Assembly: GCA_051313645.2 (NCBI GenBank)
Contig: JBNRSN020000029.1
Coordinates: 21,266,001-21,330,000, forward strand
Length of the DNA stretch: 64,000 nt
Source: Centroscyllium fabricii
Lineage: Eukaryota
Direction: 5' to 3'
The notes under the pieces were generated by a model. It was not told the DNA's origin. It did no database searches and saw nothing but the letters and a program-made list of their open reading frames with translations. This document shows, piece by piece, positions 26,974 through 64,000 of this stretch (the stretch's first letter is position 1; each line of letters starts with the position of its first letter). The position numbers were made by a program, and so were the translations under genes.

Positions 26974-29185
26974 TCTACCAGGTTCTTGCCAGTCTTGCCC
27001 TTGAGGGGTTCGTACAGGGGCTGCATGAGTAGTGCCACCATCGCACAAAACGGTGGTAAAAATGTAACATGCCCAGGAACACCTGCAGGGCCTTCATGTT
27101 CTGCGGGCGTGGAAAGGCTGTCACCATCTCTACCTTCACAGGTAAAGGCACCGCTCCCTCCGATGTGATGCGATGCCCCAGGGAATCAATTTGCTGCAGG
27201 CTAAACTGACACTGATGATGAGGACGTGTAGACGGAGGCGTTAGAAAAGGGTGCGTAGGTGACCGACATGTTGTGCCTTAGTCGGACTGGCAATCAGGAT
27301 GTCATCTAGATAGATGAAGAGGAACTTGCGGTCTCGAAGCACGGAGTCCATCAGGCATTGGAAAGCCTGGGCGGCATTCTTTAAGCCGAATGGCATTCTT
27401 AAGAATTCGAAGAGGCCAACGGGGTGATGACTGCGGTTTACTGGACGTCCTGTGGATAAACTGGAACCTGGTGGTAGCCCCGGACGAGGTCGACCTTGTA
27501 GAAGATGGTGTTACCTGCCAAATAGGCAGAAAAATCTTGAATGTGGGGGATCCGGTACCGATCCGGTGTGGTTGGATCGTTAAGACGTCGATAGTCGTTG
27601 AAGGTCCGCCATCGGTCGCCAGGCTTTGGGACGATGTGGAGAGGTGAAGACCAGGGACTTTTCAACCGGTGAATAATCCCCAACTATTCCATGGTCACAG
27701 ACTCCGCCGTTGCGACTGCCATCTTGCATTTTCGAGACATTGGGCCCGCCGTAGACTGGGGGGGGGCCATTGGTGGTAATGTGATGTTCCATCCCATGTC
27801 TGGTGGATGTGGACGAAAAAGTGGGCCTCGTTAGACCAGGGAATTCCATGAGCAGCCGAGCAAACTGATCAGGCGTCAGGAAAGCGCAGGAGATGGGGCG
27901 TTTCATCGTGTTACTGTGGGAACAAGGGAGGGAATGAAAAGTTGTCGCATTGATCAGCTGCCGATTCCGGACGTCGACCAGGAGGTTGTTGGCGCACAGA
28001 AAATCTGGGCTGAGTAGGGGCTGGGAATCTTTGGCCATGAAAAAATCTCAATGGAAACATTGCCCCCCGAAGCACATTTTCACGCACCGCCTGCTGAAGG
28101 TCCCGATTGCCCCGCCATTGGCCACCTCAAGCTTGGGTCCGTGCTTCCCCGTCTGGACATCAAGGGTGGATGCGGGCAAAATGCTGCACTGCGCACTGGT
28201 GTCACACAGAAACCTATGACCATTGAGGGTATTGGTTATGAAGAGCAATTTTCCCGCACTGCCAACCGCCATTGCGGCTGCGGGATGCTTGTTTGACTTG
28301 GTCTTTGGTGGCCGCAGCGTCAATTGGTCTTTTACTTTGGTGCAAAAATGCAGGGAGGGCAGCAGCACCTCGCCAACGCGCCGAACTGCGCATGGTAGAA
28401 GCACAGCCCAGCAGTCTGACGAACTGGGGCGGTGTCCATTGGGGCTGGGAGCCTCGTGGTGGTGCAGTAGTATCGAGTGAACCTGAAAATGTTATCCGCC
28501 TCAGCAGCGAGGGTTGTGCAGTGTGTGATTTTGGAGCTAGCTAGGGGCACTTGTACGTGCTCAGGTAGCTGGGTGAGGAATAGCTCCCAAAATAGGAAGC
28601 ATTGCGGTTTGGAACTGAGGAGTGTGAGCATCTGGCTCATCAACTCCGAGGGCTTGGAGTCCCTGAGCCCGGGCAGCGAGAGTAGTCGGCGGGCATGATC
28701 CAATTTAGTGAGCCAGAAGACCGGCAGCAATCGCTCTTTGATGTGTGTCATACTTGCGCTCCGCAGGGGGCTTTTCCAGGAGGCTGACGATCCTGGAGGC
28801 TGTGGAGCTGTCGAGTGCAAGACCACATATAGAAATTTGGTCTGATCTGCCACGATGTCTCGCAGGGCGAATTGGGCCTCCACCTGAACGAACCACGTGG
28901 GCACCTGCTGCTCCCAGAACTGTGGCAGCTTCACTTCAACTGCTTTGGCTGCCATCCTGTGTAATAGTCTGTGAAATCGTTCAACAAGACTCGGGGTCAC
29001 CACTGTGGGAATTGACGATTTTCCATGCAGAAATGAGGTCCGCACGGGAGCACAATCAAAACAGGTCTTTATTTTATGAAACAGTAGTAGGTACTGCCAG
29101 GGCAGCCCCGTGGCCGACGTCTTGACATCATCACGCTCACCTGCGATTTCCCGCACTGTTAAAGGGGCCACGCCCCATATGTACA
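26974..29185 (-). mobile_element. Degenerate, 3'-truncated Gypsy LTR retrotransposon with tRNA-Trp PBS
   Basis: LTR 29004-29185 (TG...CA, AATAAA). PBS TGGTGACCCCGA at 28991-29002. Gag KLPQFW..WFVQVEAQF and CFYH..C..PC; protease FLCDTSAQ; RT SPWSSPLHIVPK, DYRRLN, KVDLVRGYHQVP and YLDD near 27300. Frameshifted. Confidence 0.93.
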
Positions 29186-29419
29186 AACATTATATGCACA
29201 GCACAGTGATGCTAAACACCATGGTCGAAGAGCAGGCTGGTTTTAGGATTTTGTTAAAGTGAATTATATACACTTATAGTCAGTGGCCCCGCCACAATGT
29301 TGCATTATTATCAATTTCAAAAAAATGTAATCTCTTTTCGATCTTTCAAAGGGAGCTAACTCTCCTTACTCCCTCTCCTTTCTCCCTCGCCCAACAGATA
29401 AATATCATTGACTTCTAAC

Positions 29420-36412: not shown

Positions 36413-37317
36413 TTACTGAAATAAATACGTTATTGCTCCCAGGGGGCGCTTAAGGATGTTTATCAACTCATCTCTGAATTTACTCTGGGACACTGCATAA
36501 ATAAACGTGTTTGTGCAACAACTCAAAGTGGGAAGCATATATCCGGATAGTTCCATAATAGTGAAAGGGTTAGTATAATTTGTCTTTAAAAATTGACTAT
36601 CTGCAAATTGAACAACTATATAAGATGTGAATATTACCATCCATGACATTATAAAACTGGCAGATATGGCGAGCAGTAAAATTATGGATTTCCTTCGGTT
36701 CTCCATCTCTGGATCATTGTGATTCTCAGCATTGTTGTTTCCACGAAGTCGCCTTCTCGCTCTATTGGCCAGCACAATGTGCCTAATGGTCAGAGCATTG
36801 AGCAGTAAAATCAACAGAAATGGAGCAAGTGGGGTTAACAGTGTTTCCATCCACAAAAATGCTACCCATATGCGTAAGGTGTAGAAGCTTACTTTTACAG
36901 AGCAGGACCATGGCACGTTGTTAATTATTTCCCGAGGTTCATATACAAAGTAGATTGGAACATTTTCTAACACGCTCAGCCCACACACCACAGTTATAAC
37001 AACAGCTGCAGTCTCTTTGGTGCAATATCTTGTTCGCAATCTTTGGCAACAAATGGCCACAAATCGATCAAAGGTGAAAGCGACAGTTAACCAGACAGAG
37101 CAATCAAAGGAAGCAAAATTAAAGGCGAGATTGAGACTACAAATGGGAGTGTAGTTCAGAAATGAGTGTGGAAAATAAGCGTCACTAATCTGATACAGGA
37201 TTACAGCAAATATTAGGACCAGTAGATCAGCCGTTGCCATGGACACCAGATAACTGGTGATGCATTTGGAGAGTCCGACCCTTCCACGGGAGAGAACCAC
37301 AATTGTCGCTAAATTAG
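36413..37317 (-). CDS. Class A GPCR, GPR139-like paralog family, coding exon 2
   Basis: Uninterrupted frame with TM motifs YLVSMATADLL, SVWLTVAFTFDRFVAICC, PFLLILLLNALT and SCCTNTFIY. A polypyrimidine tract and acceptor TTTCTCCTCTTTGCAG end at 37318, so the ORF-track start at 37402 is intronic. Confidence 0.92.
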
Positions 37318-38184
37318 CTGCAAAGAGGAGAAAGATGAAATTACTGAATCTCCTTATATTGAGAGGATAGTCACTCGACAGTTTATTGGCGTGACACTGC
37401 ATGCATTTCTAACCTTGGCCTTCAAAAGTCTCTCTGGGGATGTTTCAACTGAACACACAGGGAGAAATCCCACGGGATAGTGGGCAATGCTTGATTTACT
37501 ACCCGCCCAATATTACTCCTCATTATCTTCAGTAGAGAGTCGAATCTGCACAGTGTTAAACCAGCATTGCTGCCGATCCTGTCAGTTTATCGAGCGGTGG
37601 GTTACTTTATCATTGCTCAACGGTGCGAGGTTGATTGGCTGGTGCGTTGAAAGGAAATTCTGGCCAAGTATCCACCTGTTAATACAAGCCGCCATATTAT
37701 CCATCCTGTGGTATTAATTTGCAGGGAAACCCATCAGCTTATGCAGAGGCAGTGGTTCCAGCCTCCAGATTGCTGTATCTGTCTAAATCCGGCTGCAAAG
37801 AATACAATCTTCCCCATAGCTGCCGGTGCCATCATTACAAACTCTGCCGCACCTTGATTTTGGGATTCAAGCAGCGTGTTGGCCATTACTGTGCTTGCTC
37901 ACACCATTAACCAGCATCAATTTAATGCAGCATCCAACATCGCTCAGTTTCACACTCGCAGCCTTCAGGGCTGCCCTTTGAGTGTAAACTTTCCGAGTAA
38001 CTGCCGCTTTTCCAGATCTCGCTTTTCACTGGTAACAGTGACATACAATCGCTGCTGCATTCCCAGAAATTTAGTGGGAAACACACCTTGATGGATAATT
38101 AAAACTTTCCAACAATATTAATCAACTGGAACCCAGGTGCGATGCTAGTATTTGGCTCAGATTGAAATTTACATATATAAATAT

Positions 38185-41799: not shown

Positions 41800-43088
41800 T
41801 GTGGCGACACGCCCACCGGCAGCCACGAACCCGCGCTGGGAAGGCTGCAAAGCGGCCCCGCCCGTCGGAGGACGCACGGACTTCCCCGACGTGATGACGT
41901 CACCAGGTGGCCAGCCGGCAGTGACGTCCCCAGCCGCGGGACCTTTAAATATCTGAGAGCCAGGTGGCTCACTCTCTTTCTCCCTACCTGGCCCTAGCTG
42001 TAACAAGTAGTTAATAAAAACTCTGCATTCAACCTCTCTGTGTCCAGCGTGGTCCTTCAGCCTTGCAGGCCTCAACACTGGTGACCCCGATACCTGAGAC
42101 GTTTCTCAGGTGAACAATGAAGCAGCCACTGCAGGACTGAGGGACAAGCTGCCGCAGCCGAATCGCTACCACCATGCCAGCAGCAACCGACTCAGCACGC
42201 CAAGGCAGACGGGGCCAAGTTTACCTCCCGGTCCCAACCATACCACAATTCTGGGAGCTCCGTCCAGCGGCTTGGTTTCGCAACACCGAGAACACCTTCC
42301 GCATTCATGGCGTGCACGCAGACGACCGCTACAGCCTGCTCTTCGCAGCCCTCGCACAGTCCACCATCGACAGAATGTGGGACACCATCGAGGAAGACAC
42401 TTCTGCTGGCAGGTACGAATCGCTAAAGGCCGCGCTGCTCGCAAAATTTACCCCAACCATTTTCGAGCGCGATTGCCAGGTCATTAACCTCCCCGACCTG
42501 GGAGATGCAGACCCCACCGACTTGTGGGCCCAGTTCGAGGCGCTTAATCGCGACTCAGACACCCTTAAGCGCGCCCTCTACCTCCTTAAGCTGCCGCCCT
42601 CCATCAGACCGACACTGACGGTCTTGGAGCACCTCTCAAACAGGCAGCTAGCTCAGGAGGCAGACAAGCTCATTAAGGCCGAGCGCACCCGCGCCACCAT
42701 GCACCGCCACGCTGCCGCTCAACAAGAGCAGCACCAACCACAACCCCGGCCCCAGCTCAGAGCCGCGCGGACCCACAAAAAGCCACGCACCGCGGCAACC
42801 GGCTGGTGCTACTACCATACCAGGTTTGAGGCCAAAGCGCAGCGCTGCGTTCCGCCCTGCAACTTCAAACCCCAAACCTGCCCCAGCCCCACCATGTGCG
42901 TCGGCCGCTCCGGAGCGCTGCTCTTCGTTACAGACAGTGTCTCAGGCCTCCGTTTCCTCTGCGACACAGGCGCGCAGCACAGCATCGTGCCAGCCTCCCC
43001 CGCAGAATCCAAGCAGGGCACCCAAGGCCCACCACTCGAAGCCGCAAACGGCTCCGAGATACTCACGTTCGGTACCCGCCAGCTAATA
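41800..43088 (+). mobile_element. Young Gypsy 5' fragment: LTR, tRNA-Trp PBS, gag and protease
   Basis: LTR 41800-42077 (TG...CA, TTTAAATA, AATAAA). PBS TGGTGACCCCGA at 42079-42090. CpG-rich and truncated within the protease. Confidence 0.93.
42174..43088 (+). CDS. Gypsy Gag plus N-terminal part of aspartic protease (3'-truncated)
   Basis: Open frame with IPQFWELRPAAWF, WCYYHTRF..KAQRCVPPC and FLCDTGAQHS. The last codons of the tracked ORF run into Penelope sequence. Confidence 0.85.
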
Positions 43089-43630
43089 CTGTGTTCGCTG
43101 GTCATGATGCGGCCTCATCTACATTGGGGAGACCAAACACAGATTGGCTGACCGCTTTGCAGAACACCTCCGTTCAGTCCGTAAGGGTGACTCTGAGCTT
43201 CCGGTCGCCTGTCACATTAATTCTTCACTTCACTCCAAATCTGATCTCTGTGTCCTCGCCCTCTAACGCTGTTCCAGTGAAGCTAAACGTAAACTCGAGG
43301 AACAGCACCTCATTTTTCGAATAGTCACTTTACAGCATTCCGTGCTCAATATCGAGTTCAATGATTTCAGATAATAATCCCTGCCCCCATTTTTCATGCT
43401 GTATGATTTTGCTATTCCCATTTGCTACATTTTCACACCTGTTCTTTCAATCCTTCCTCCCCTCCAAAACGCCTCCGCTCAACTGTCTCTGCAACTGTCA
43501 GTAGCTGTTATGTTTCCAGTTTATTCCTATTCCGATGAAGGTTCCAGGACCCGAAACGTCAACTCAGTTTCTCTCTCCACGGATGCTGCCTGGCCTGCTG
43601 AGTCTTTCCAGAATTTTCTGTTGTTATTTA
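43089..43630 (+). mobile_element. Penelope-like 3' end: GIY-YIG endonuclease fragment plus terminal repeat
   Basis: CGLIYIGETKHRLADRFAEHLRSV..LPVACH, then CCGATGAAGG...CCCGAAACGTCAAC and TTTCTCTCTCCACGGATGCTGCCTGGCCTGCTGAGT. Confidence 0.88.
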
Positions 43631-43639
43631 CTACTTACA

Positions 43640-44460
43640 TATGTCTGAGGAGCAGTGTTTGCGAAGGCTGTGCTCCAGCAAGGAGGTGGTCACTGAGCTC
43701 TATCACCTGCTTCAGCCGGATCTGCAGCCTCAACTGAGGAGCAGAACGTCTCTGTCGGTGGCAGTTAAATAACAGTAGCTCTCTACTTCTATGCCACTGG
43801 CTCATTTCAATCAGCTACCGTGGACATCGCTAATATATCCCCATTCGTGGTGCATTGTGTATCCGTCAGGTGACAATGCCCTCTTTAAAAGTAGACTAGA
43901 GTACATCTCTTTCCCCAAGATCCTGGTCAAGCAGCCAGAGCGCACAATGGGCTTTGCCAGGATAGCGGGCTTCCCCAAGGTGCAGGGCGGCATTGACTGC
44001 AAGCAGGTGGCTTTGCGTGCTCCGCATGACAATGCCGTGGATTTCCACAACAGAAAGGGCTTCCATTCCCTAAACGTGCATTTGGTGTCTGACCACAGAC
44101 AGCTGATACTCACTGTCAGTGCCCACTATCCTGGCAACAGCTACGATGCCTCTTCCTGCGCCAGACTTCTGTGGCAGAACTTTTCCAGCCTCTGCATCAC
44201 CCAGGTGGTTGGCTTCTCCGGGACAACGGATATCCTCTGAGCACCTGGCTGATGACACCGCTCCATATGGGCAGCACCCCTGCTGAGCCGCGATACAGTG
44301 AGAGCTATCAAGCTATCAGGAACATCACTGAACACACAATCGGCGTGCTGAAGCAACGGTTCCGCTGTGTGGACCATTCTGGAGGAGCCTTGCAGTACTC
44401 ACCTGAGCGAGTGTCCCACTTTGTGGTTGTGTGCTGCATGCTGCAGAACCAATCCTCAGG
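43640..44460 (+). pseudogene. Harbinger DDE nuclease (HARBI1-like), frameshifted
   Basis: GFPKVQGGIDC, NRKGFHSLNV, GWLLRDNGYPL..WLMTP, EHTIGVLKQRFRC and LQYSPERV..VVVCCMLQN, spread over different frames. Confidence 0.9.
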
Positions 44461-44779
44461 ACCCTGCCACTGCCACCAGGCATTGCGGCATCACCAAAGG
44501 AGGAGGAGGAAGAGGAGAAGGAAGATCAGGAGTAGGAGGATAATCATCATCAGCTCCATGGCGGGAGGGATGTCGAAACTGAAAGGGCCATCTTCCAAAG
44601 GCTCATAACAAGCTTCTTCTCGGCCCCTTCTGAAGAAATTACTTCTGCCATTGAGAGCAACATGAATGAAAGCAACCCGCAACCCTTAAGCTGCTCAAGG
44701 TATCAATGATGGCAAAGACCAAACATGTTAATTTTGATTTAAAACATTATTTGTTTTACAACACACTGGCCTTCCCACG

Positions 44780-47898: not shown

Positions 47899-50800
47899 TG
47901 TAGGAGACTGTGATCTCCTAACAAATAAATCAGCCAACTCGGTGGAGTAACTGCGAAACTGGTCTTTTCTGTTGAAACTCCCAAAACATTCTGACAACAA
48001 AAGCCCGCAGAATGCACGACGACATCACTAACTGGTCTGTTTTCCCTCTCTCTTAAAGGGGAGGGGAAACCTGTAAATTAAAGGGGATTTTACATGCAAT
48101 TGTTAGGTACAGTACTTTATTGCCCGATGTAGTAATGCCACATGTGCCCTCCCAGAATCCTATTAACTGAAAAACTCAATCGTTCAGGTGACTTGATTAA
48201 ACGGCCGTAGCGGCTGCAGTACTTGGATGGTGGACAAGGAGGAGTGTCTGGGTGGCTGGCAGGTTGAAGAACAGGCGAGTCCGGTGACATCGGACTCGCA
48301 GGATGTTCTATGGGTGACGAGGATGACGAATAATAATAATAATAAGATGATGATTGGCAGGCGGGCAGACTAGCTGACGACAGATGTGTTGCAGAAGGTC
48401 TGCTGTGACATGGAGGAAGATCCGACAGGACCGGAGGACTGAGGTCTAGTTGAGCCGGCTTCAGACGAACCACTGAGATGTAGACCGGCTTTCCGCCGAC
48501 GTACAGAATGAAAGATTTGTCTCCCGCCTCTAAGATATGGAAGGGCCTCTTGTAAGGGGCTTGAATAGGATCTTTGTGTGCATCCTGATGCACGATAACG
48601 AATTCCACCTGGTATAGATCCTTTGCAATGTGGGATAGCTGAGGGCGATGCTGGGACGTGGGCACTGGCAGAAAGCACCTGGCCGTCTTTTTGTCCAGTG
48701 ATCGTTCTATTGAAGCGGACCACGGCTCTGTCATAAGGAGCTCCTGGGTTCGAATCCTGCTTGGCCCGGGTCCTCTCTGTGTGGAGTTTGTATGTTCTCC
48801 CCGTGTTCGTGTGGGTTTCCGCTGGGTACTCCGGTTTCCTCCCACCACCCAAAGACATGCAGGTCAGGTGAATTGGAGGTACTAATAATTGCCCATGAGT
48901 ATGTGTGTGAGATATAGTTCTTATAGTTGGGGGTGTCGGGGGATATGGCGAGAGGGTAGGAAGGGGGTGCTGGGTTTGGATGATCAGCAATGATCTCATC
49001 AAAATGGCAGAGCAGGCTCGAAGGGCCGAATGTCCTACTCCTGCTCCTAGTTTCTGTGTTTCTGTGAGGTAGACGAAAGGAAAAGGGTGGTCCTGAAGCA
49101 CCGAATGCAGAAGGCATTGCAAAGCTTGTGCAGTGTTCTTCAGCCTGAAAGGCATTCTTAGGAATTCAAAAAGGACAAAATGGGTGATGACCACGGTCTT
49201 CTGGATGTCAGCCTGTTGAACGGGAACTTGATGACAACCATGGACCAGATCCACTTTTGACAAGATGAATTTTCCTGCCAGGTGTGCCGATAAGTCCTGG
49301 ATGTGCAGTATGGGGTGATGATCAGGCATGGTAGCATAATTGAGCCTCCTATAATTGGCGCAGGGTCGCCAGCCATCGTCTGGCTTAGGGACAATGTGAA
49401 GAAACGAAGACCAGGGACTATTCGAGCGGCGAACGCCGACCAATGATTCTATTGTTGTGAACTCTGCCTTGGCCATGGCCATCTTGGCTGGATTCAGGTG
49501 CCGAGCATGAGCATATGTGTTCAATGCCATGTTTAGTCGATGTGGCCAAAAAAGTTGGCTGTGTGAGTCCAGGAAAATCTGCCAGAAGACGAGAGTCATC
49601 GTCCAGTGCAGGCGAGGTGCAGGACAAACGAGGGCCGGTCTGTTGGTGTGTTGGCACAACAAAGAATTAAATGTGGCTGCGTTGATGAGGCATCGATCGC
49701 CGATGTTAACCTGAAGGTCTTGGGCACACAGGAAGTCTGCACCAAGCAGGGGCTGTGATAAAGTCCCAGGTAAACTGCTGCCCATGGAAGAAGATTTCCG
49801 CTCAACGTTTTGCATAAGGGCAGATAACGGTGCCATTAGCTGCCACAAGGTGAGGTCCACTCCGGCCCGTCAGTTTATCATGGGTGGAAGCTTGGATAAT
49901 ACTGCACTGCACACCTGTGTCACAGAGGAATTACTGCCCAGAAAGTGAATAATTGATGTAGAGGTGTTTCCCTGCTTAATCGACAGCCATCGTGGTGGCA
50001 GGGGGTCGCTCAGACTAAATCGCCAGTGGCGAGGACTCGGTGAGTTGGGCAGGGTAACCTTTTGTTTTGTTGTGAATGTGCAGGGTGGGCGGCAGCGGTG
50101 AGCCTTCACACCAAAATTGGACAAGAACAGAGGCCTACAGCCTGATGAGGTGGGTTGCATTCCATGGGTTACTGAGAAGATTTTATCTGCCGTGGCTGCG
50201 AGTTTGATGCAGTCCATAATTGGAGAACTGGCGAGGGGAGCCTGGGCTTGCTGGGGGAGCTGGCTTTAAAACAATGCCCGAAAAAGAAAGCATTGTGGCT
50301 CAGACCCTAGAAGTGTTAGCATTCAGCTCATTAACTGGGTAGGGGTGGAGTCTCCAAGGTCCAGTAGTGTGAGAAGCCTGGGAGCTCTCTCTTCTTTGGA
50401 GAGGCTGAAAACCTGCAGGAGTCTGTTTTTAACTGCTTCATACTATCCAGTTTCTGGAGGATATTCCAGAAGATTGATGATTTCGAAAGCAGTGGAGCTT
50501 TCGAGGGCCGATAAGATGTTGAGAAATTTGGCTCAGCATGGACAAACCATGCAGGTGCTTGCTGCTACAAAAAGAAATGCAGTTTCAAGGCCGCAGCGCT
50601 GGTTGCCATGATGCTGCGTAGGTCGGCAAAAACGTTTACCGACTTTGGGCCACCAATGTCGGAGATTGTGATCTCCTAACAAATAATTGAGCCAACATGA
50701 AGGATTAACTCAAAAACAGGTCTTCACTGATCGAACTCCAAAACAGTCTAAACAAGAAAGCCCGCCAAACGCGTGATGACATCACCACGTTGAGTCATGT

Positions 50801-50911
50801 GAGGTCTGTTTTCCTTGTCTCTTAAAGGGGAGGGGAAACATACAATTTAACAGGGATTTTACATACAGTTTCTTTATACAGACATTTATCCCCCGATGTG
50901 GAACTGCCACA
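47899..50911 (-). mobile_element. Degenerate, internally deleted Gypsy with two diverged LTRs
   Basis: LTRs 47899-48142 and 50657-50911 both start TGT.GGAGA.TGTGATCTCCTAACAAATAA and end GCCACA. Degenerate PBS TGGTGGCCC near 50647-50655. RT SPWSSFLHIVPK, KVDLVHG and FLRMPF; integrase tail QAPY..PF and VRLKPA. Confidence 0.9.
48744..49065 (+). mobile_element. V-SINE, second subfamily, starting at the B box, inside the Gypsy
   Basis: Starts CTGGGTTCGAATCCTGCTT, then V-domain and tail TTTCTGTGTTTCTGTG. Closely matches 26644-26973. Confidence 0.9.
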
Positions 50912-51530: not shown

Positions 51531-51814
51531 GTGCATCATTGTCGTAAAAACTAACTGAGGTGCTTCAGGGAAGGGAACCTGGTGTCCCTTCCTGTTCTGG
51601 CTGCTGTTTGTGGTAGGATTTCTCGAGGATCGACAACACTGGTCAAGGACCGCCCACTGTCTGTCAGTTTTGTAGGTGTTGAAGTGGAGGAGGTCGATGC
51701 CTAGTCCCAGGATCTACAACAGTCTTTGATTCAGCTCCGAAGCAATACACAATTCACCCAATAGCCCCTCCCATCCCATCCATCCTGGGCAAGTGCATCA
51801 AGAATATTAATTAA

Positions 51815-54800
51815 GCACCTGGGGACTGCTGGCTGAGGGACAAGGGACCGGTGGCTGAGGGACAAGGAATTGGTGGCTGAGAGACAAAGGACAGGTGGCT
51901 GAGGGACAAGGGACTGGTGGCTGAGGGACAAGGGACTGGTGGCTGAGAGACAATAGACTGGTGGCTGAGGCCCAAGAGACAGTTGGCTGAGAGACAAGGG
52001 ACTGGAGGCTGAGGGACAAGGGACTGGTGGCTGAGAGACAAGGGACTGGTGACTGAGAGACAAGGGACTGTTGGCTGAGAGACAAGAGACTGGTGTCTGA
52101 GAGACAAGAGACTGGACGCTGAGGGCCAAGGAAATGGTAGCTAAGAGGCACGGCCAATTGCTAAGAGTGAAGGGACTTGTTGCTTTGAGTCAAGAGGCCA
52201 GTTGGTAAGAGCCATGGGACCGGGTGCTAAGAGCCATGGGACCAGATGCTAAGGGCTGTGGGACCGGGTGCTAAGGGCCAAGGAACTGGTTGAGATTGGT
52301 TGCTAAGGGCCATTTGATATTTTGGGACTGTTTATTGAGGGCCAAGGGACCATTGGGACTAGTTACTAAAGGCCAAGGGATCGGTTGCTGAGGGCCAAGG
52401 GACCGGTTGCTAAACTCATGGGACCGGTGACTAAGGGTGAATGGATCGGTTGCTAAGGGCCAACAGACCGGTTGCTAAAAGCCTTGGTACTGGTAGCAAA
52501 GGGCCTAGGACTTATTGGCACTGGTTGCTAAGGCCCAAGGGTCTTGCTGGGATTGGTTGCTAAGTGCTAAGGGACTTGTAAATGGATGCAAAGGGCCATG
52601 GGACTTGTTGAGACTGGTTAATGATGTCTAAGAGACTTGTTGGGACTGGTTGATAAGGTCCAAGGGAATTATTGATAAGATCCAAGGTTTAGTTGAGACT
52701 GCTTGCTAAGAGCGAAGGGTCTTGTTGTGACTGGTTGCTAAGACCAAGGGATTTGTTGGGACTGGGTGCTAAGAGCCTTGGGACTGGTGCTAAGGGCCAT
52801 GACAGATGGTGGTAAGGGCCATTGGACCAGTTGTTAAGTGCCCTGGGACCGGAAGCTAATGGCTGTGGGATCGGGTGCTAAGGGCCGTGGGATCGGTTGG
52901 TAAGAGCCAAGGGACCAGTTGCTAAGGGCCATGGGACACGGTGCTAAGGGACGTGGGACCAGTTCCTATGGGCCACAGAACCATGTGCTAAGGGCCATGG
53001 GACCAGGAGCAAAGGGCCAAGGGACCGGTTGCTAAGTGCCTTTGGACCGGATATTAAGAGCAAAGGGACCGGTTGCTGAGGGCCATGAGACCAGTTGCTA
53101 AGGACCATGTGACCGCGTGCTATGTGCTGAAGGAGTGATTGCTAAGTGCCGAAGGACTGGGTGCCAAGGACCCTGGGACCAGGTGCTATGAGTCATGGGA
53201 CCGGTTGCTAAGCACCCTGAATCTGGGTGCTAACGGCTGCGGGACTGGGTGCAAACACCCCTAGCTTCTTCTAAGACCCCATTGTATTCTGTTTTTAGTT
53301 AGTTTCTCTATGTCCCTTTGTTGATTTACATCTTTAGTCAACATTTAATCTGTTCCCACAGTTGAAGCTCACTCCTCGTATTCGTTTCCCATAGCCTTGG
53401 AGTTTTCAAACCGTCTAGAATATGCTGCAGTTGTATATTATTTAATTCTTTTTTTAAAGTCCTCAGTATTACCCTGTTAACCCTTTGGCGGCGTTTCTTC
53501 ACTGGAAGTGTATGCCTTTTAAATTTAAAGAGTCCATTAAAGCTTTTAGTCCAAGCATCCAAAATTTACTCCAACAGGTTGATAAGGTCCAAGGGACTTG
53601 TCGGTAAGGTCCAAGGGATTAGTTGAGATTGGTTGCAAAGATTGAAGGGGCTTTTTGGGACTGGCTGCTAAGGTCCAAGGGACTTCTTGGGACTGGGTGT
53701 TAAGGGCCTTGGGACTGGAGCTAATGGCCATGGGACCAGTTGCTAAGGACCCTGGGAGCGGGTGCTAAGGGCCCTGGGATAGGGTGCCAAGGGCCATGGG
53801 ACAGGGTGCCAAGGACCACGGGACAGGGTACAAAGGCCATGTATCAGGGTGCTACGGGACGTGGTACCATGTGTTAAGTGCCATGGGACCGTGGGTAACA
53901 GCCATGGGATCAGTTGCTAAGGGCTGCAGGACCAGGTGCAAACGGCCGAGGGAGCAGTTGCTAAACACATGCGATCGGTGACTAAGGGCAAATGGAACGG
54001 TATTCAAGGCCAAGGGATCGGTTGCTAAATGCAATGGGACTGGTGATTAATGGCAAAGGGGACGGCTGCTTAGGGCCAAGGGACCGGTGGCTAATAGCCA
54101 TGGGACTGGTTGCTAAGCTTCGCCAAGGACTTTTTGGGACTGGTTGCTAAGGTTCAAGGGACTTGTTGGAAATGGTTGCTAAGGTCCACGGGACTTGTTG
54201 AGACTGGTTGCTAAGGTCCAATAGACTTACATAAGAAAATAAGAACTGAAGAAACTGGAGTAGGAATAGGCCAATCGGCCCCTCGAGCCTGCTCCGCCAT
54301 TCAACAAGATCATGGCTGATCTGATCCAAACCTCAAATATACTTTCACTCTCCATCCCACCGGAACCCATTGGATCTCCCGGGAGAGGCGAAAAACCAGA
54401 TAAAAAACCCAGTGGCCAATTTGGGAGAAAAAATCTTGGAAATTCCTCTCCGACCCATCTAGGTGATCAAAACTCGTCCAGGAGAGCACATGGCCGATCT
54501 GAACCTAGGCTCACATCTACTTACCTGCCCGGTCACCTTAACCCCTAATTCCCTTTACTTTTAGGAAACTGTCTATCTCGGTTTTTAATTTATTCAATGT
54601 AGTAGCTTCCACAGCTCTCTGGGGAAGAAGATTCCACAGAGCTACCACCCTCTGATTGAAGAAGTTTCTCCTCATCTCAATTTTGATACGGCAGCCTCTT
54701 ATTTTAAGATCATGCCCCCTAGACCTAGTTTCACCCACCATTGTGAACATCCTGACCGCATTCATCCAATCAAGCCCCTTTACAATCTTATATGTTTCAA

Positions 54801-57800
54801 TAAGATTGTCTCTCATTCTTCTGAACTGCAATGCATAGAGGCCCAATCTACTCAACCTCTCCTCATATGTCAACCCCTTCATCCCCGGAATTAACCAGGT
54901 GAACCTTCTTTGTACTGCCTCGAGAGCAAGTATGTCTTTTCTTAAATATGGACACCAGAATTGTATGCAGTATTCCAGGTGTGGTCTCACTAATACCCTG
55001 TACAACTGCAGCAATACCTCCCTGTTTGTGTACTCCATCCCCTTAGCAATAAAAGCCAACTTTCCATTGGCCTTCCTGATCACCTGCTGCACCTGCATAC
55101 TAACGTTTTGTGTTTCCTGCACCAGGACCCCCAGATCCCTTTGCACTGATGTAGTTTCCAGTTTCTTTCCATTGAGATAATAACTCGCTCTGGTAGTATC
55201 CCTGCCAAAGTGCTTAACCTCACACTTTCCATTATTATATTCTATCTGCCAAATCTCTGCCAACTCACTTAGCCTATCTATGTCCTTTTGCAGGCTTTTA
55301 GTGTCCTCCTCACTCATCACACATCCTCCCATCTTTGTATCGTCTGCAAATTTTGTCATGTTGCACTTGGTCCCTTCCTCCAAATCATTAATATAGATTG
55401 TAAAGAGTTGGGGTCCCAGCACTGAACCCTGCGGATCACCACTAGTCACTGATTGCCAGTCTGAGAATGAACCATTTATCCCAAATCTCTGCTTTCTGTT
55501 AGAAAGCCAATCCTCCACCCATGCCAGAATATTACCCCTAATCCCGTGATTTTTTATCTTGAGCAATAATCTTTTGTGTGGCACCTTGTCTCATGCCTTT
55601 TTGAAGTCTAAATACACTACATCCACTGGTTCCCCTTTATCTACCCTATATGTTATGTCCTCAAAGAACTCGAGCAAATTTGTCAAACATGACTTCCCCT
55701 TCGTAAAGCCATGCTGACTTTGTCCTATTAAATTATGCTTATCTAAATGTCGTGCTACTGTTTCCTTAATAATGGACTCTAACATTTTGCCAACCACAGA
55801 TGTTAAGCTAACTGGTCTATAGTTTTCTGCCTTCTGTCTACAACACTTTTTAAATAAACATTAGCAGTTTTCCAATCTGCCAGGAGCTTTGCCGAGTCCA
55901 GAGAATTTTGAAAAATTATTCCCAATGCATCCACAATCCCTACCGTCACTTCCCTCAAGACCGTAGGATGTAAGCCATCAGGTCCAGGGGATGTATCCTC
56001 CTTAAGTCCCATTATTTTACCGAGCACCACTTCCTTCATGACTTTACTCATAATTAGCTCCCCCCCCCCAAGAGCCCCCTCTTTGTCCAGTGTTGGGATA
56101 TTCTTAGTGTTGTCTACTGTAAAGACTGATACAAAATATTTGTTCAGCGTTTTTGCCATCTCTATGTTTACTACCATTAATTTCATGGTCTCATGCTCTA
56201 AGGGACCAACATTTACTTTCACTACCCTTTTTCTTTTTATGTAACTATAGAAACTCTTACTATCTGTTTTTATATTTTTTGCTAATTTAATTTCACAATC
56301 TATCTTCCATTTCTTAATCAATCTTTTTGTTATTTTTTGTTGACTTTTAAAAGCTTCCCGATCTTCTATCTTCCCACTAGATTTGGCTACCTTATATAAC
56401 TTTGTTTTTAGTCTGATACTATCCTTTATTACTTTACTTAGCCATGGATGGCTATCTTTTCTTTTACACCCTTTTTTCCTCAGTGGAATATATTTTTCTT
56501 GAACATTGTAAAATAACTCCTTGAATGCACACCACTGATCATGTACCGTCTTACACTTTAATCTGTTTTCCCAGTCCACTCTAATCAATTCTGCTCTCAT
56601 ATATTCATAGTCTCCTTTATTTAAGCTCAGTATGCTTGTTTGAGATCCAACCCTCTCACCCTCTAAATTAATTAGGAATTCGACCATGTTATGGTCACTA
56701 ATTCCAAGGGTATCCTTTACTAGGACATTATTATTAATCCTGTCTCATTACACAGGACCAGATCTAAGATTGCTTGCCCCCTGGTCGGCTCAGTTACATA
56801 CTTTTCAAGAAACCCATCTCTAATACACTCAATGAACACTTCATCAAGGCTGCCCTGCCCAACTTGATTAGTCCAGTCAATATGAAAGTTAAAATCACCC
56901 ATAATTATAGCTGTTCCCTTATTACAAACCCCAACTATTTCCGGACTTATACTCTGACTAACCGAGTTACTACTGTTAGGAGGCCTATAGACTATGCCCA
57001 CTAGTATTTTTTCCCCTTATTAATTCTTATCTCCACCCAAACTGTTTCATTATCCTGATCATTTGACCAAATATCATTTCTCTGTATTGTAGTGATTCCT
57101 TGCCATATTAACATAGCCATGCCACCTCCCTTTCCTTCTTGGGCTTGTTAGGTCCAAGGGAATTCTTGATTATGTCCAAGGGATTAGTTGGGACTGGTTG
57201 CTAAAAGCAAAGTGTCTTGTTGGGACTGGTTGCTAAGGTCCAAGAGATTTGTTGGGGCTGTGTGCTAAGGGCCATGGGACCAGTTGTTAAGGGCCCTGGC
57301 ACTGGAAGATAACGGCTGTGGGACCGGGTGCTAAGTGCTGTAGGGCCATGTGTAAGAGCCATGGAACCAGTTGCTAAGGGCCATGGGACATGGTTGCTAA
57401 GTGCCATGGGACCGGATGCTAAGGGCCGATGGGCCGATTGCTAAGGGTCATGAGACCAGTTGTTGAGGACCATGGGACCAGTTGCTAATGGACGTGGGAC
57501 ATGGCGTGAAGTGCCATGAGATTGGTTGCAATGGGCCGGGGGACCGTGTGCTAAGGGCCAAGGGACCAGTTGCTAAGGGCCAAGGGACCAGTTGCTAAGG
57601 GCCGAGGGACAGGGTGCTAAGGGCCTTGGACCGGTTACTAAGGATCCTGGGGCCGGCTGCTAAGGATCGGGTGCCAAAGGTCTTGGGACCAGGTGCTAAG
57701 GGCCCTGGGACAGGGTGCTAAGGAAACATGGGATATGGTGCTAAGTGCCGTGGGGGCCGGGTGGTAAGAACCATGGGACCACCTGCTAAGAGCCATGGAA

Positions 57801-58890
57801 CAACCTGCTGCGGGCCGTGAGGCACGGTACTTAGGGCCGTGGGACCAGTAGTTAAGTGCTGCTGGCCTGAGTGCTAAGGGCTATTGGACCGGGAGCAAAG
57901 GGCCGAGGGACTGGTTGCTAAGTGCCGTGGGACCGGATGATATGGGCCAAGGGACTGGTTGCTAAGTGCCATGAGACTGGTTACTAAGGGCCGAGAGATC
58001 GGTTGCTAAGGGCTGAGAGACTGTTTCCTAAGGGCCATGGGACAGGGTGCTAAGGGCCTTGGGACCAGGCGCTGAGAGCTGAGGGACCACTTGCTAAGGG
58101 CCATGGGATTGGCTGCTAAGGGCAATGGGATCGGGCGCTAAGGGCTGGTTGCTGAGTCCCATTCGACCAGTTGCTGAGTGCCGTTTGTCTGGTTGCCAAA
58201 GGCAAGGAGACCAATTGCGAAGTGCCAAGAAAACGGGTGCTAAGGGCCATGGAAATGGTTGCTAAGTGCCAAGGGACTGGCAGTTAACGGCCAAGGGACC
58301 GGCAGCTAAGGGCCACGGCCAATTGCTAAGAGCGAAGGGACTGGTTGCCAAGAGTCATGGGGCCATATGGGGCCTGTTGCCACGTGCCATGGGACTGGAT
58401 GCACAGGGCCTTGGGAGCGGGTGCTAGGGGCCATGGGATTGGCAGTTAATGCCTGAGGGAACGGTTGCTAAGGGCCATGTAATCAGTTGCTAAGGGACAT
58501 GGGATCGGGCACTAAGAGCCATGGGATCGGGCGCTAAGGGCTGAGGGACCGGTAGCTAAGAGCCATGGAAACAGTTGCTAGGGGCCAGGTGACCGGTTGC
58601 TAAGGGCCAGTTGCTAAGTCCCATGCGACCGGTTGCTAAGGGCCGGTTGCTAAGTCCCATGTGACTGGTTGCTAAGGGCCGTAGGACCAGTTGCCAAGGG
58701 CCATGGTGCTGGTTGCTAAGTGCCAATGTACCGGCAGCTAAGGGCCACGGCCAATTGCTAAGAGCGAAGGGAATGGTTGCTAAGAGCCATGGGGGCAGTT
58801 GCTAAGGGCCATGGGTGTGGGTGCAAAGTGCCAATGGACCGGGTGCTAAGGCCATGGACCGGTTGTTAAGTTCCAAGGCACTTGATGCTC
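51815..58890. repeat. Second block of the 22-bp satellite, same orientation, interrupted at ~53256-53575 and 54229-57140
   Basis: Same monomer and same diagnostic variants as block 1. It begins with a homogeneous variant sub-array GGCTGAG(A/G)GACAAGGGACTGGT at 51815-52125. Confidence 0.97.
54229..57140 (-). mobile_element. 5'-truncated, relatively young CR1 LINE inserted in the satellite
   Basis: A long ORF2 in four pieces (56720-57001, 55803-56687, 55591-55797, 54538-55584) with VYRPP, MGDFN, ILDLVL, SPGPDG, QHGF, YLDFKKA, PQGSVLGP and KFADDTK. 3' tail ACATAAGAA. Confidence 0.96.
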
Positions 58891-59154
58891 ACAGAAACAC
58901 AGAAACACAGTGTGGTAAACCACTGTTGTAAATATTTGCCTGTGTGTATACATGCTCGGGCATGCCAGAAGCTGACTCCAACCCTAGACTACCTGATAAA
59001 GGTCCGAGCTCTGGGAGCCTGGCCCAGTACAAGGAGTTGCTGGTCAGACTAAGGATGTTTAGGGTTCTTAGTGAATAACAGCCTCAGTTGTATTCTCAAC
59101 CTCGCCTCGAGTATAATTGATCGCGCATCAATTTTATTCACTAAGAGTTTTGAG

Positions 59155-60429
59155 ATGGACGCCCTCCTAAAACTATCCACCCTGGAACTCGACCCAAGCA
59201 CACCAGAAGCGCAGAGCAGCTTCTCCCACTGGCTAACCTGCTTTGAGGTATTCCTGGCGACCTCCGCCAGCACTGTCCAGACGGATGCCCAGAAACTCTT
59301 GCTTCTGCAGTCACGGCTCCATCACCGAGTGTTCCAACTCATTAAGGGAACGACCTCCTACACATCGGCAATGGCACTCCTCAAGGAGCAGTATGAGCGG
59401 CCGACTAACACGGTTTACGTCAGGCACCTCCGGCTGACCCGCAAACAATGGCCCAGGGAGAGTTTTGCTGGCTTTGTGCGGGCCCTGACGGAGCTCAGCA
59501 GAGCCTGCAAATGCGAAACGGCCTCGGCAGATGAGCACAGGGAGCTGCTAGTCCGAGACGCCACCATCGCCGGCGGAATATCGGACTACACCCGGAAGAG
59601 ACTGCTGGAACTGGGGAAACTGTCCCTGAAGAAGGCCACAGTCATCGGACTCGCACTCGAAGGGGCTGATCGGAGTATGGAGTCGTACGCGCACATGGCC
59701 GCCCCATGGACCTCACAGGAGCCGCCAGTGTGGAACACGCCAGGCCCGACGCCTTATGCCGCACCACTGTCGCCTCACCCCGTGTACGGCCCAACCACTG
59801 CACCGGTACCCCGGAGCCAGAAGTGCTATTTCTGCGGCCAGGTGAAGCACTCCAGGCAGCGCTGTCTGGCAAAGGACGCTATGTGCACGCGCTACCAGAG
59901 GAAGGGACACAACGCGAGCATCTGCAAGTCGTCCCCCAGGCCCAGCAGCGCCGCGTGCGAACCGACCTTGCGGCCATCTTGGAAAACACCCCCCATGTGC
60001 GACTCATGGGAGAAGCCATCTTGGAAGCCTACAGCCACAGACCGACCCGGCTCCCTGACTGACTGCGATCAGCCACCAGCCACGGTACTGGCTTCCATTA
60101 CCTTGGACCAGTCTGGGCCCCACCACCTCACAAAGTCAATGATGGACATTAAGGTAAACGGCTGCGCCACAAACAGCCTGTTTGACTCGGGGAGCACGGC
60201 AAGCTTTATCCACCCTGATATGGTGCGCCGCCTCTCGCTCTCGACTCGGCCCGTGCACCAGCGCATCTCCCTCACTTCCAAATCCCAGACCGCGGATGTC
60301 GGCAGTTACTGCATGGTAACCCTGTTGGTGAGCGGCGCAGTGTACAAGGATTTCAAACTCCTGGTCCTACCCAACCTGTGCGTGGCCGTCCTCCTGGGTT
60401 ACACTTCGAAACCCACCTTAATAGCTTGA
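59155..60429 (+). CDS. Gypsy Gag-protease reading frame, broken by a frameshift near 60400
   Basis: ATG at 59155 (MDALLK...). Zinc knuckle CYFCGQVKHSRQRC plus a degenerate second knuckle. Protease LFDSGSTASFI. Confidence 0.85.
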   Translation: MDALLKLSTLELDPSTPEAQSSFSHWLTCFEVFLATSASTVQTDAQKLLLLQSRLHHRVFQLIKGTTSYTSAMALLKEQYERPTNTVYVRHLRLTRKQWPRESFAGFVRALTELSRACKCETASADEHRELLVRDATIAGGISDYTRKRLLELGKLSLKKATVIGLALEGADRSMESYAHMAAPWTSQEPPVWNTPGPTPYAAPLSPHPVYGPTTAPVPRSQKCYFCGQVKHSRQRCLAKDAMCTRYQRKGHNASICKSSPRPSSAACEPTLRPSWKTPPMCDSWEKPSWKPTATDRPGSLTDCDQPPATVLASITLDQSGPHHLTKSMMDIKVNGCATNSLFDSGSTASFIHPDMVRRLSLSTRPVHQRISLTSKSQTADVGSYCMVTLLVSGAVYKDFKLLVLPNLCVAVLLGYTSKPTLIA

Positions 60430-61739
60430 CGATGGCGTACGGGGTGCCCCTTCCCCCCCTCACTGTCCGCAACCAGAAGCCCTCAAACCGACCAGCGCGA
60501 CGTCTGCAGCCTCTCGACCCTCAAGGTCGCTCCTCCCCCACTGTTCGCTAACCTCACCCCAGACTGTAAACCCATAGCCACTAAGAGCAGGAGACACAGT
60601 GCTGGGGACAGGGCTTTCATCAACTCTGAGGTACAGCGGCTCCTGAAGGAGGGGGTGATTGAGGCTAGCACCAGCCCCTGGAGGGCCCAAGTAGTCGTTG
60701 TTAAGACCGGTGAAAAGAACCGATTAGTTATCGACTACAGCCAGACCATCAACCGCTTTACGCAGTTGGACCAGTCCCCCCTCCCCGCATATCTGACATG
60801 GTCAATCAGATTGCGCAGTACAAGATGTTCTCCACCATTGACCTGAAATCGGCTTATCACCAACTCCCCATCCTCCCCGCGGACCACCGCTATACTGCCT
60901 TCGAGGCTAACGGCAGCCTCTACCACTTCCTCAGGGTCCCCTTCGGGGTCACCAATGTCGTCTCGGTTTTCCAACGGGAGGTGGAACGTATGGTTGACCA
61001 GCACGTGCTACTGGCCACGTTCCCGTACCTAGACAACGTGACCATCAGTGGCCATGACCTGCACGACCATGATGCCAACCTGGAAAAATTCCTTCGCACG
61101 GCCCAACTCCTTAATCTCACCTATAACACGGAGAAATGCATGTTCCGCACAACACGCCTTGCCATTCTTGGCTGTGTCATGGAAAATGGGGTCATCGATC
61201 CCGACCCAGACCGCATGCACCCCCTCATGGAACTCCCCCCCCCATTGCCAACAGGCCCTGCGAAGATGCCTGGGCTTCTTCGCCTACTATGCCCAGTGGG
61301 TCCCTAACTTTGCGGACAAGGCCCGCCCGCTCCTAAAGTCCACCTCCTTTCCCCTGATGATGGAGGCCTGTATGGCCTTCGATCGCATCAAACGGGACAT
61401 CGCTAAGGCCACCATGCACGCGGTGGACGAAACTGCCCCATTTCAGGTGGAGAGCGATGCGTCCGACTTTGCCCTTAGCCAGGCGGGCAGACCCATGGCC
61501 TTCTTCTCCCAGAACTTCCAAAGCCTCGAGACTAGACACTCCTCTGTCGAGAAGGAGGCCCAGGCAATAGTGGAAGCTGTGCACCACTGGAGGCATTACT
61601 TGGCCGGTCAACGGTTTACCCTGCTCACTGACCAGCGCTCAGTTGCTTTTATGTTCCGCAACAAGCAGCGGGGTAAAATCAAAAATGACAAGATTTTGAG
61701 GTGGAGAATTGAACTCTCCACCTACAACTACGACATCTT

Positions 61740-62532
61740 ATAAGATAAGATAAGATTCAATTTATTGTCATTGTAAAGTGAACATACACAAAACAACGAA
61801 ATGCAAACATGCAATCTCCCAAATTATTAAATGTCCTTGGTCCCAGTCTGATCCATTCCAGGCCACGCAGGCCCGGGCGCTGCAGCCACGATGCAGCTCC
61901 CCTCAGCCCGACGGCCACAGCTCCCCGAGGCCCTGACTCTCCGAGGGCCCGACGGCCACGGCTCCACGAGGCCCCGACTCTCCGAGGGCCCGACGGCCAC
62001 AGCTCCCCGAGGCCCCGACTCTCCGAGGGCCCGACGGCCACAGCTCCCCGACTCTCCGAGGGCCCGACAGCCACAGCTCCCCGAGGCCCCGACTCTCCGA
62101 GGGCCCGACGGCCACAGCTCCCCGACTCTCCGAGGGCCCGACAGCCACAGCTCCCCGAGGCCCTGACTCTCCGAGGGCCCGACAGCCACAGTTCCCCGAG
62201 GCCCCGACTCTCCGAGGGCCCGACGGCCACAGCTCCCCGAGGCCCCGACTCTCCGAGGGCCCGACGGCCACAGCTCCCCGACTCTCCGAGGGCCCGACAG
62301 CCACAGCTCCCCGAGGCCCCGACTCTCCGAGGGCCCGACGGCCACAGCTCCCCGACTCTCCGAGGCCCGACGGCCACAGCTCCCGGCGGCTTGTTCAGCA
62401 CCGGTGCCCCGATTGAGGAGCACCGGTGCTCCACTCCACCGACCCCGCCGTCCTCTCCAGGAACAGTACGGGACCAGGGACACTAAACTCGGGAGACGCA
62501 AAGCAGCTGCTTCTAGCGCGCCGCCATCTTGG
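61740..62532 (-). mobile_element. Non-coding composite retroposon with internal GC-rich VNTR, inserted in Gypsy pol
   Basis: Pol reads YNYDIL on the left and resumes ..RGKLNEPPDDLSRG on the right. The minus strand begins CCAAGATGGCGGCGC and ends AATAAATTGA(ATCTT)n. Confidence 0.8.
61902..62384. repeat. Minisatellite of 41-bp and 33-bp units, about 13 copies
   Basis: GAGGGCCCGAC starts at 61943, 61984, 62025, 62058, 62099, 62132, 62173, 62214, 62255, 62288, 62329 and 62362 (last copy one G short). Confidence 0.96.
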
Positions 62533-63936
62533 TCCGGCGTGGTAAGCTCAATGAGCCCCCAGACGACCTCTCCCGGGGAACATGTGCCAGCGGGCAGGTG
62601 GATCGACTGCGGTCCCTCCACAATGACCTCTGCCAACCGGGCGTCACCCGGTTCTTCCATTTTGTCAAGGCCCGCAACCTGCCTTACTCCATTGAGGAGG
62701 TCAGGACATTGACTAGTGACTGCCAGGTCTGCGCTGAGTGCAAACCGCACTTTTACAGGCCAGACAGGGCACAACTGATCAAGGCCACCAGTCCCTTGAG
62801 CGCCTCAGCATTGATTTCAAGGGAGCCCTCCCCTCCCCCGACCGCAATGTGTACTTTCTCACCATTATTGATGAGTACTCACAGTTCTCCTTCGCCGTTT
62901 CCTGCCCTGACATGACCTCGGCCACGGTCATCAAGGCCCTGCACAATCGCTTCGCCCTGTTCGGGTTCCCCAGCTACATCCATAGCGACTGGGGTTCCTC
63001 ATTTATGAGCGACGAGCTGCGACAGTACCTGCTCGCTAGAGGAGTCGCCATGAGCAGGACTACCAGCTACAACCCCCGGGGGAACGGACAGGTGGAGAGG
63101 GAGAACGCTACAGTCTGGAAGACCACTCTGCTAGGCCTAAAGTCCAGGGGGCTTCTGGTCTCTCGCTGGCAAGACGCTCTCCCGGATGCCATAAACGCCA
63201 CCCCTCATGAAAAAATGTTTGTCTTCCGCTGGAAGTCCACATCGGGGACATCACTCCCATCTTGGCTGACATCCCCGGGGTCATCTTGCTCCGGAAACAC
63301 GTCAGGGGCCATAAGACGGACCCCCTCGTCAAAAGAGTCCAACTCCTCCACGGAAACCCCGAATACGCCTACATTGTGTATCCGGACGGGCGGGAGGACA
63401 CCATTTCTATTAGGGACCTCGCCCCCTCGGGTGCCCCCGATGCTGCCGAACCCCGCCACCCCCCCTTTTGCAACCCACCACCCCCCGGGAGGCACCTGCA
63501 TCTGATCTTTCTCCCCTAGCACCTGTACACTGCGCGCCGGATCCAAGGACCCAGCCGCCGACCACCGACTGCTCCCGTGCGGACGAAGACATGGAACCAG
63601 CACCACAGCTGTAGCCATGACAATCACAGAGGCATAATAGACCTCCTGTAAGACTCATGTACACTTCACTTTGTCTCACTCCACCCCACTGGACTCATTT
63701 TTAAAGAAGGGGTGAATCTGGGGAACCCCTGTTGTATATATATGCCTGTGTGTATACATGCCCGGGCATGCTTTAAGCTGACTCTGCCCCTAGCCTACCT
63801 GATAAAGGCCCGAGCTCTGGGAGCCTGGCCCAGTTCAAGGAGTTGCCGGTGAGTCTAAGGATGTCCAGGGTTCTTAGTGAATAAAAGCCTCAGTTGTATT
63901 CTCAACCTCACCGCGAGTATAATTGATCGTGCATCA

Positions 63937-64000
63937 CACAGAAGATAGGAGCAGCAGTAGGCCATTCGGCCCTTCGAGCCTGCTCTGCCATTTTGAAGAG
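63937..64000 (-). mobile_element. SINE/CR1 3' tail split by the Gypsy insertion (remainder at 58890-58910)
   Basis: (CACAGAAA)n lies left of the provirus and continues on the right as CACAGAAGATAGGAGCAG..GGCCATTCGGCCCTTCGAGCCTGCTCTGCCATTTTGA, the same tail as at 26644. Confidence 0.85.

Follow-up and report, generated by a model that had tools for sequence, protein, structure and literature searches.

A Gypsy retrotransposon clade of Centroscyllium fabricii with a primer binding site complementary to its own LTR: evidence for probable self-priming

The locus considered here raises the question of what primes reverse transcription in a Gypsy element whose primer binding site (PBS) does not begin with TGG and is complementary to its own long terminal repeat (LTR). 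To our knowledge, the experimental demonstration of self-priming is limited to fission-yeast elements, and the mechanism is usually tied to chromoviruses. Within the window (the whole stretch of Centroscyllium fabricii DNA analysed, 64,000 nt), a decayed Ty3/Gypsy copy spans positions 58911-63936 of the forward strand between 5-bp duplications of the target site (TSDs), CACAG, at 58906-58910 and 63937-63941. Its 220-bp LTRs, the 5' one at 58911-59130 (TG...CA) and the 3' one at 63717-63936 (beginning TC in this copy), are identical at 195 of 220 positions. A single base (59131) separates the 5' LTR from the PBS (59132-59146). The gag-protease frame (59155-60429, from its open reading frame and a domain match) starts with an ATG 8 nt past the PBS and includes a double Cys-His knuckle region near 59824-59925. 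The pol part is disrupted by frameshifts and by a foreign insertion with a tandem repeat at about 61743-62525, missing from the sister copies, which skip element positions 2833-3615. Domain matches mark a reverse transcriptase (RT) fragment (60714-61307), an RT thumb/RNase H fragment (61042-61743) and an integrase core fragment without a chromodomain (62738-63505); the polypurine tract (PPT) lies at 63703-63716. The Pfam order protease-RT-RNase H-integrase is that of Gypsy elements, and the best PDB match of the RT is Ty3 RT. Among named proteins, the closest are those of rays and sharks (68-81% identity), followed at 48-52% by proteins from a nematode, cnidarians, a tunicate and an insect.

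Elsewhere in the window, about 1500-26000 is occupied by an extensive array of 22-bp tandem repeats that shows a strong GC skew, and a looser, related-looking repeat fills about 51800-58900, directly to the left of the element. A 331-codon open frame at 36413-37408 (-) matches the rhodopsin-family seven-transmembrane receptors, and DDE_Tnp_4 transposase fragments, presumably of Harbinger type, are present at 43779-44608 (+). Three other Gypsy remnants were found at 28332-29189 (-), 42141-43151 (+) and 47899-50911 (-), two of them with DUF7041. The preliminary description assigned these a TGG-starting, putatively Trp-type PBS, and TGG-starting sites following a CA were indeed located at 29007(-), 42076(+) and 50658(-).

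The PBS of the element under study reads TTTTATTCACTAAGA. Its reverse complement corresponds to 63872-63886 of the 3' LTR at 15 of 15 positions and to 59066-59080 in the 5' R at 14 of 15, so that the match first described for this copy is confirmed. At the mismatch the 5' partner reads AATAAC in place of AATAAA, and the AATAAA of the 3' copy is likely the working poly(A) signal. Both the PBS 15-mer and its complement occur once in the window. When the LTR was base-shuffled 3000 times, no shuffle matched the 30 nt that follow the LTR over 15 nt, the largest match being 13 nt, seen once. Rfam models searched over the LTR and PBS gave no match above the gathering score (a weak mir-297 match fell far below its threshold). 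The own 5' leader of the window copy, bearing the A-to-C change, is predicted to fold differently from the partner-PBS helix.

In the 7.2-Gb host genome, a 21-mer joining the LTR end to the PBS had 2026 exact matches (control 0). Among 30 loci of this window family, a perfect run of at least 13 nt with the own LTR was present in 20, point changes were seen in 7 and part of the LTR was missing in 3. A sister family (2509 junction matches) has a C-G pair where the window family has U-A, and its 30 loci showed 15/15 pairing in 22 cases, 14/15 in 7 and no LTR in one. A looser junction pattern returned 79,688 further matches (control 67), bringing the sum of the three counts to 84,223 pattern matches, 90 of which were inspected. 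The compensatory changes that the preliminary description proposed to look for are found between families, complementarity is kept in sister families, and no TGG-starting PBS appears family-wide. In all families seen in the host genome the partner segment ends in AATAAAA. In 11 of 20 longer regions the LTR pairs are 92-99% identical, which suggests that the clade was active fairly recently.

Covariation was assessed on the first 30 loci of the looser pattern, which limits PBS position 8 to a purine and leaves positions 9-13 free. PBS positions 8-13 paired with the own LTR at 178 of 180 sites; with permuted partners 128.6 +- 5.1 sites were paired (maximum 148), and none of 10,000 permutations reached the observed value. 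These loci represent about ten families and are not independent copies. The self-pairing PBS is real, conserved and covarying. Since the PBS varies among families, a match to a host tRNA half is unlikely.

Changes confined to single copies behave otherwise and are mostly uncompensated: compensation was seen in 1 of 30 cases at PBS position 11 and in 7 of 29 at position 12, all seven belonging to one variant. Routine copying of PBS changes from the LTR of the same copy was rejected on these grounds. One copy (L348) has two uncompensated PBS changes, and another (L342, identical to L289 and L351) has a compensatory change common to the 5' LTR and PBS and absent from the 3' LTR. The uncompensated position 11 changes (L351-L410) comprise, as raw counts, 19 A, 8 G and 2 C, the reverse of a transition-led spectrum; this purine excess may come from non-templated addition where plus-strand strong-stop DNA terminates.

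More distant relatives were collected from metagenomes by a protein profile search, which gave 80 loci with 43-57% protein identity to the query, 24 of them with the gag start. A perfect PBS-LTR match of 12-17 nt was detected automatically in 13 of the 24 (0 of 200 shuffles each), and pairing of 11-14 nt was found in L165, L179 and L193 after the LTR ends were set separately. Eight of the 24 showed no clear match by either approach, four of these being without a candidate or incomplete. L229 has a 9-nt match, and L187/L190 are paired at 11 of 12 positions with one G-U when judged by eye; in L154, L158, L161, L200, L206 and L207 the PBS-LTR match search gave nothing clear or the sequence is incomplete. 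The paired letters vary among about ten families; between L164 and L166 the difference is a single compensatory pair. Constant features are the location of the PBS one base after the LTR, the A run at the partner 3' end, mostly followed by GCC or CC, and a distance of 37-77 nt to the LTR end. In several of these relatives the partner ends in GTTAAA, ATTAAA or GATGAA, and in L153 a separate AATAAA is located downstream of the partner.

In an RT tree of 76 rows, all self-pairing rows fall into one clade with a support of 98, separate from a TGG-type element of the window. It is a quick tree of rows collected by similarity, with no named references and with some host-genome rows possibly derived from nested elements. 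The preliminary description had noted no evident chromodomain; none was detected in the window open reading frames or in any of 8 full-length homologues at E 0.1. Two Cys-His arrays in Gag, which we take to be a trait of the Mag lineage, are present in 8 of the 9 proteins inspected. RT motif C, which reads YLDN at 61026-61037 of the window and aligns with the YLDD of Ty3, is YxDN, not YxDD, in 83 of the 104 homologues with a detected motif (120 examined) and in 39 of 49 loci (64 examined). The full-text literature searched contained no paper on a natural YxDN clade. A Gag search among longer proteins gave no match, and no relative was found among viral contigs; an atlas search with homologue Gag returned unnamed clusters, mostly from arthropods. 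For the LTR-gag stretch, a search of sequencing runs gave four unlabelled contig runs from a single study and no RNA data set.

The position of the pairing segment within the RNA was estimated from the leaders of related copies. A TATA-like motif stands 81-86 nt before the partner 3' end in 17 of 18 leaders, and an initiator-like motif stands at 50-55 nt from it in all 18. The corresponding sites of the window copy are a predicted TATA-like box at 58995-59002 and an initiator-like site at 59023-59030, placing the predicted RNA 5' end at about 59026. The partner-PBS helix has a mean predicted probability of 0.87-0.99 in 17 of the 18 leaders and 0.43 in L280. From this spacing, together with the ends of the extended copies described below, the RNA 5' end is inferred to lie 35-40 nt upstream of the pairing segment, in agreement with the earlier suggestion of a partner some 40 nt inside R.

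New here is a class of copies in which the PBS is extended as the reverse complement of R, with ends dropping past the initiator-like site. In 104 window-family and 137 sister-family copies, about 5% of the copies in these families, the extension reads on in reverse complement to the LTR stretch that lies upstream of the partner. Of these, 90 and 70, respectively, were examined, representing 81 and 54 events after duplicate removal. In the window family, where the initiator is at 55, 14 of 90 extensions end at 53-57. For the sister family a pile near 50 was predicted beforehand, and 13 of 70 ends occur at 48-53. After deduplication, the window family has 20 ends at positions 48-57 against 1 in the next ten (p 1e-5), and the sister family has 14 within the ten-position stretch that closes 2 nt beyond the initiator against 4 in the next ten (p 0.015). 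Expressed per nucleotide, ends fall past the initiator from 1.38 to 0.12 and from 1.31 to 0.07, respectively, with cut-offs derived from the data. Beyond an initiator-like site that lies 50-55 nt upstream of the partner 3' end, extension ends are about ten times scarcer. The pile shifts only modestly between the families (medians 53.5 versus 51; Fisher p 0.035, Mann-Whitney p 0.096), and many short extensions rejoin internal sequence by microhomology, which blurs their ends. A third group supplied only 17 extended copies, 8 with short ends at 30-62 and 9 extending over the whole LTR. The pile at the initiator points to an RNA 5' end, since a DNA template would give no reason to stop there. An extra C, as might derive from the cap, followed 9 of 19 initiator-ending extensions and 18 of 83 elsewhere, a difference that is not significant, G being excluded near the initiator by design.

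Other extensions run through the whole U3 (28 of 90 in the window family and 25 of 70 in the sister family), some of them beyond the PPT. They include loop inversions and one amplified event, for which reason the notion that all whole-LTR extensions are primer copies was rejected. Whole-U3 extensions need DNA snap-back or a second template, and they fit a 3'-end primer equally well.

Some of the extensions arose before integration. Matching TSDs were found, within the DNA examined, in 14 of 55 and 12 of 43 extended copies with a visible LTR start. Only integrase can have produced the palindromic ones, which have a direct TSD (L320; L091/L114/L134, one amplified event), and hence their extension preceded integration. 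Palindromic mini-elements composed of an LTR, one base and an inverted part of the LTR, with a direct 5-bp TSD, were seen at L320, at L091, L111-L114, L124, L133 and L134, and at L244, one such event being amplified at several loci with an identical flank. TSD-bounded mini-insertions made up of a single LTR together with an extended PBS and a short tip of U5 were present at L121, L130, L145, L148, L245, L249, L253, L257, L291 and L297. Two other abundant subfamilies gave only 7 and 10 extended-PBS matches and have a hairpin directly upstream of the pairing segment.

Self-priming in some form is very probable from family-wide conservation, from the compensatory changes between families and in distant relatives, and from the lack of a TGG PBS. 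The reading we favour, to which we assign a probability of about 0.7, is Tf1-like self-priming by a capped primer of about 50-55 nt cut in cis from the 5' terminus of the element's own RNA. Judging by motif spacing and the cDNA fossils, transcription would start at the initiator, which lies about 30 nt past the TATA box, with the pairing segment following 35-40 nt further on. Pairing with the PBS about 50 nt downstream would then involve the final 13-15 nt of this leader, as complementarity, covariation and the predicted RNA fold suggest. A cut just after the A run, made by the element RNase H if the process is as in Tf1, would free a 3'-OH; in the window copy the predicted primer is 59026-59080, about 55 nt, judging by the extended-PBS ends. 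Trimming would normally remove the 5' 35-40 nt that stay unpaired, RNase H being the probable agent after the 3' R has been copied into the minus strand, and plus-strand strong-stop DNA would for that reason usually end after the PBS. If trimming failed, the plus strand could copy the primer toward the cap and rejoin by microhomology, a possible origin of the extended-PBS copies observed.

In the host-genome families, the predicted helix would also bury the AAUAAA of the 5' LTR only. The earlier proposal that one duplex both supplies the primer and hides the poly(A) signal is well supported in its first part. The second part is plausible and unproven, because the AATAAA overlap holds in the host genome and not in all relatives; a putative damping of premature polyadenylation is conceivable, with the odds somewhat against it.

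The same fossils could arise from other modes of priming. The 3' R segment, trimmed to its A run, could itself act as primer, with the upstream 35-40 nt of R serving as homology for the first transfer. The pairing segment is present in both R copies, the upstream R is thereby given a task, and the extensions through U3 and past the PPT (L059, L140, L232, L236) are as expected when an untrimmed 3' primer is copied. However, the drop of ends at the initiator is not predicted by this route without a second step, and the 5' copy, at a distance of just 50 nt, is predicted to fill the PBS itself. Priming by the 3' end is held to be unlikely. A primer acting in trans would be a short LTR transcript running from the cap to the poly(A) site of a 5' or solo LTR, deadenylated and trimmed to the duplex edge, the genomic RNA staying uncut. 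It would be the same capped 50-55-nt primer and would leave the same fossil ends; LTR copies are abundant, and in the host genome the segment holds the poly(A) signal. Yet the cis pairing is predicted to be stable, matching specific to each of many coexisting families is simpler in cis, and pairing is kept in relatives without AATAAA in the segment. Priming in trans is accordingly held to be quite improbable.

It could also be supposed that the helix is an RNA structure or a mask of the poly(A) signal only, or a product of DNA-level inverted-repeat correction, and that a host RNA or protein serves as primer. The change common to the 5' LTR and PBS of L342, and absent from its 3' LTR, would fit this, snap-back alone can make extended copies, and HIV-1 is described in the accessible text of PMC12789967 as hiding AAUAAA in a hairpin. 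The helix, though, begins one base past the LTR, at the point from which the minus strand must be initiated; there is no constant PBS sequence that a host RNA could match, correction at the level of single copies is rare, and AATAAA is not always inside the helix. Such an origin seems to us hardly probable. A chance match or a one-off rearrangement in the window copy, which the A/T-rich segment might favour, has a negligible likelihood: the shuffles gave 0 of 3000, and thousands of junction matches and the covariation refute it. Tf1-like cis priming from the 5' end thus stays the preferred reading.

If this reading is true, tRNA-free priming arose again in a separate, very successful animal clade and sustains copy numbers in the tens of thousands in a vertebrate. 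Such a clade might be out of reach of tRNA-fragment defence. An internal primer poses a question absent in Tf1, namely, how the long 5' overhang is removed. The aberrant insertions of the genome allow the RNA 5' end and cDNA intermediates to be mapped from DNA alone, an approach usable for other candidate self-priming groups. The composite picture can be offered only tentatively and may well not hold in every part: an unnamed, widespread animal Gypsy clade would have evolved self-priming of its own, separately from Tf1 and in a new layout. Its primer, capped and 50-55 nt long, would pair through its 3' end only, be released by a cut at the poly(A) hexamer and be trimmed in the course of copying; a single helix would both supply the primer and silence the 5' poly(A) signal, and the clade, with a natural YxDN polymerase site, would have passed 80,000 copies in a single vertebrate genome. 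The YxDN site is of interest since the same change, engineered in Ty1 as D211N, is reported in the accessible part of PMC2148107 to make polymerisation 223-fold slower and to block transposition, with partial rescue in RNase H.

The full-text papers searched, largely outside the subscription journals, hold no description of self-priming in this clade; the PBS tables of PMC13524379 and PMC6317226 may bear on this point. The accessible parts of PMC3601003, PMC6238403, PMC13524379, PMC10886601 and PMC2774666 do not mention the priming of such a clade. According to the accessible portions of PMC3601003 and PMC3286476, the Mag lineage (A, B and C clades) has short LTRs, a clear AATAAA, a 5-bp TSD and a length of about 5 kb. 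The window element resembles it in all of these and in the double Cys-His knuckle; unlike the mosquito Mag elements, with a tRNA-Ser, -Leu or -Arg PBS (PMC3286476, same portions), its PBS is self-complementary. Placement in the Mag lineage, suggested by a Gag trait and by the general build, is tentative, the tree holding no named Mag sequence.

Similarity to the HIV-1 polyA hairpin lies in the AAUAAA of the 5' LTR being held in a helix (PMC12789967, accessible text). In contrast to HIV-1, the partner strand here is the PBS, outside the LTR, so that the helix would form only at the 5' end, and its function is putative. Other tRNA-less sites, the Skipper polypyrimidine and the GalEa hairpin, have no LTR partner in the accessible text of PMC5006619 and PMC5445492. 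Self-priming has been predicted for Tf1/sushi, for plant and fungal Tcn1 and for the Copia TAR lineage (PMC6317226, in the part accessible). The TAR lineage (Houba, Osr-1) of plant Ty1/copia is similar in that the prediction comes from PBS-LTR complementarity outside chromoviruses; it differs in belonging to another superfamily and kingdom and, in the same source, is a prediction only.

The closest parallels are Tf1/Tf2 of Schizosaccharomyces pombe, Tj1, the Tf1/sushi chromoviruses and Tcn1, which are likewise Ty3/Gypsy elements with no tRNA PBS and with a PBS complementary to their own R. As described in the accessible parts of the sources, the first 11 bases of Tf1 RNA pair with the PBS, and the RNase H cut falls between bases 11 and 12 (PMC7175516); copying of the primer yields a single-stranded PBS tail that is kept on about half of the cDNA (PMC11042837), and Tj1 of S. 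japonicus and Tf2 resemble Tf1 (PMC4600332, PMC5341516). Unlike Tf1/sushi, the window element and 8 of 8 homologues have no chromodomain, and the paired segment of the clade is internal, 35-40 nt from the predicted RNA 5' end. Unlike that of Tf1, the helix terminates in a run of A and in many cases spans the poly(A) signal, and RT motif C is mostly YxDN. With no chromodomain and an internal partner, the window element would thus work like Tf1 while standing outside that group.
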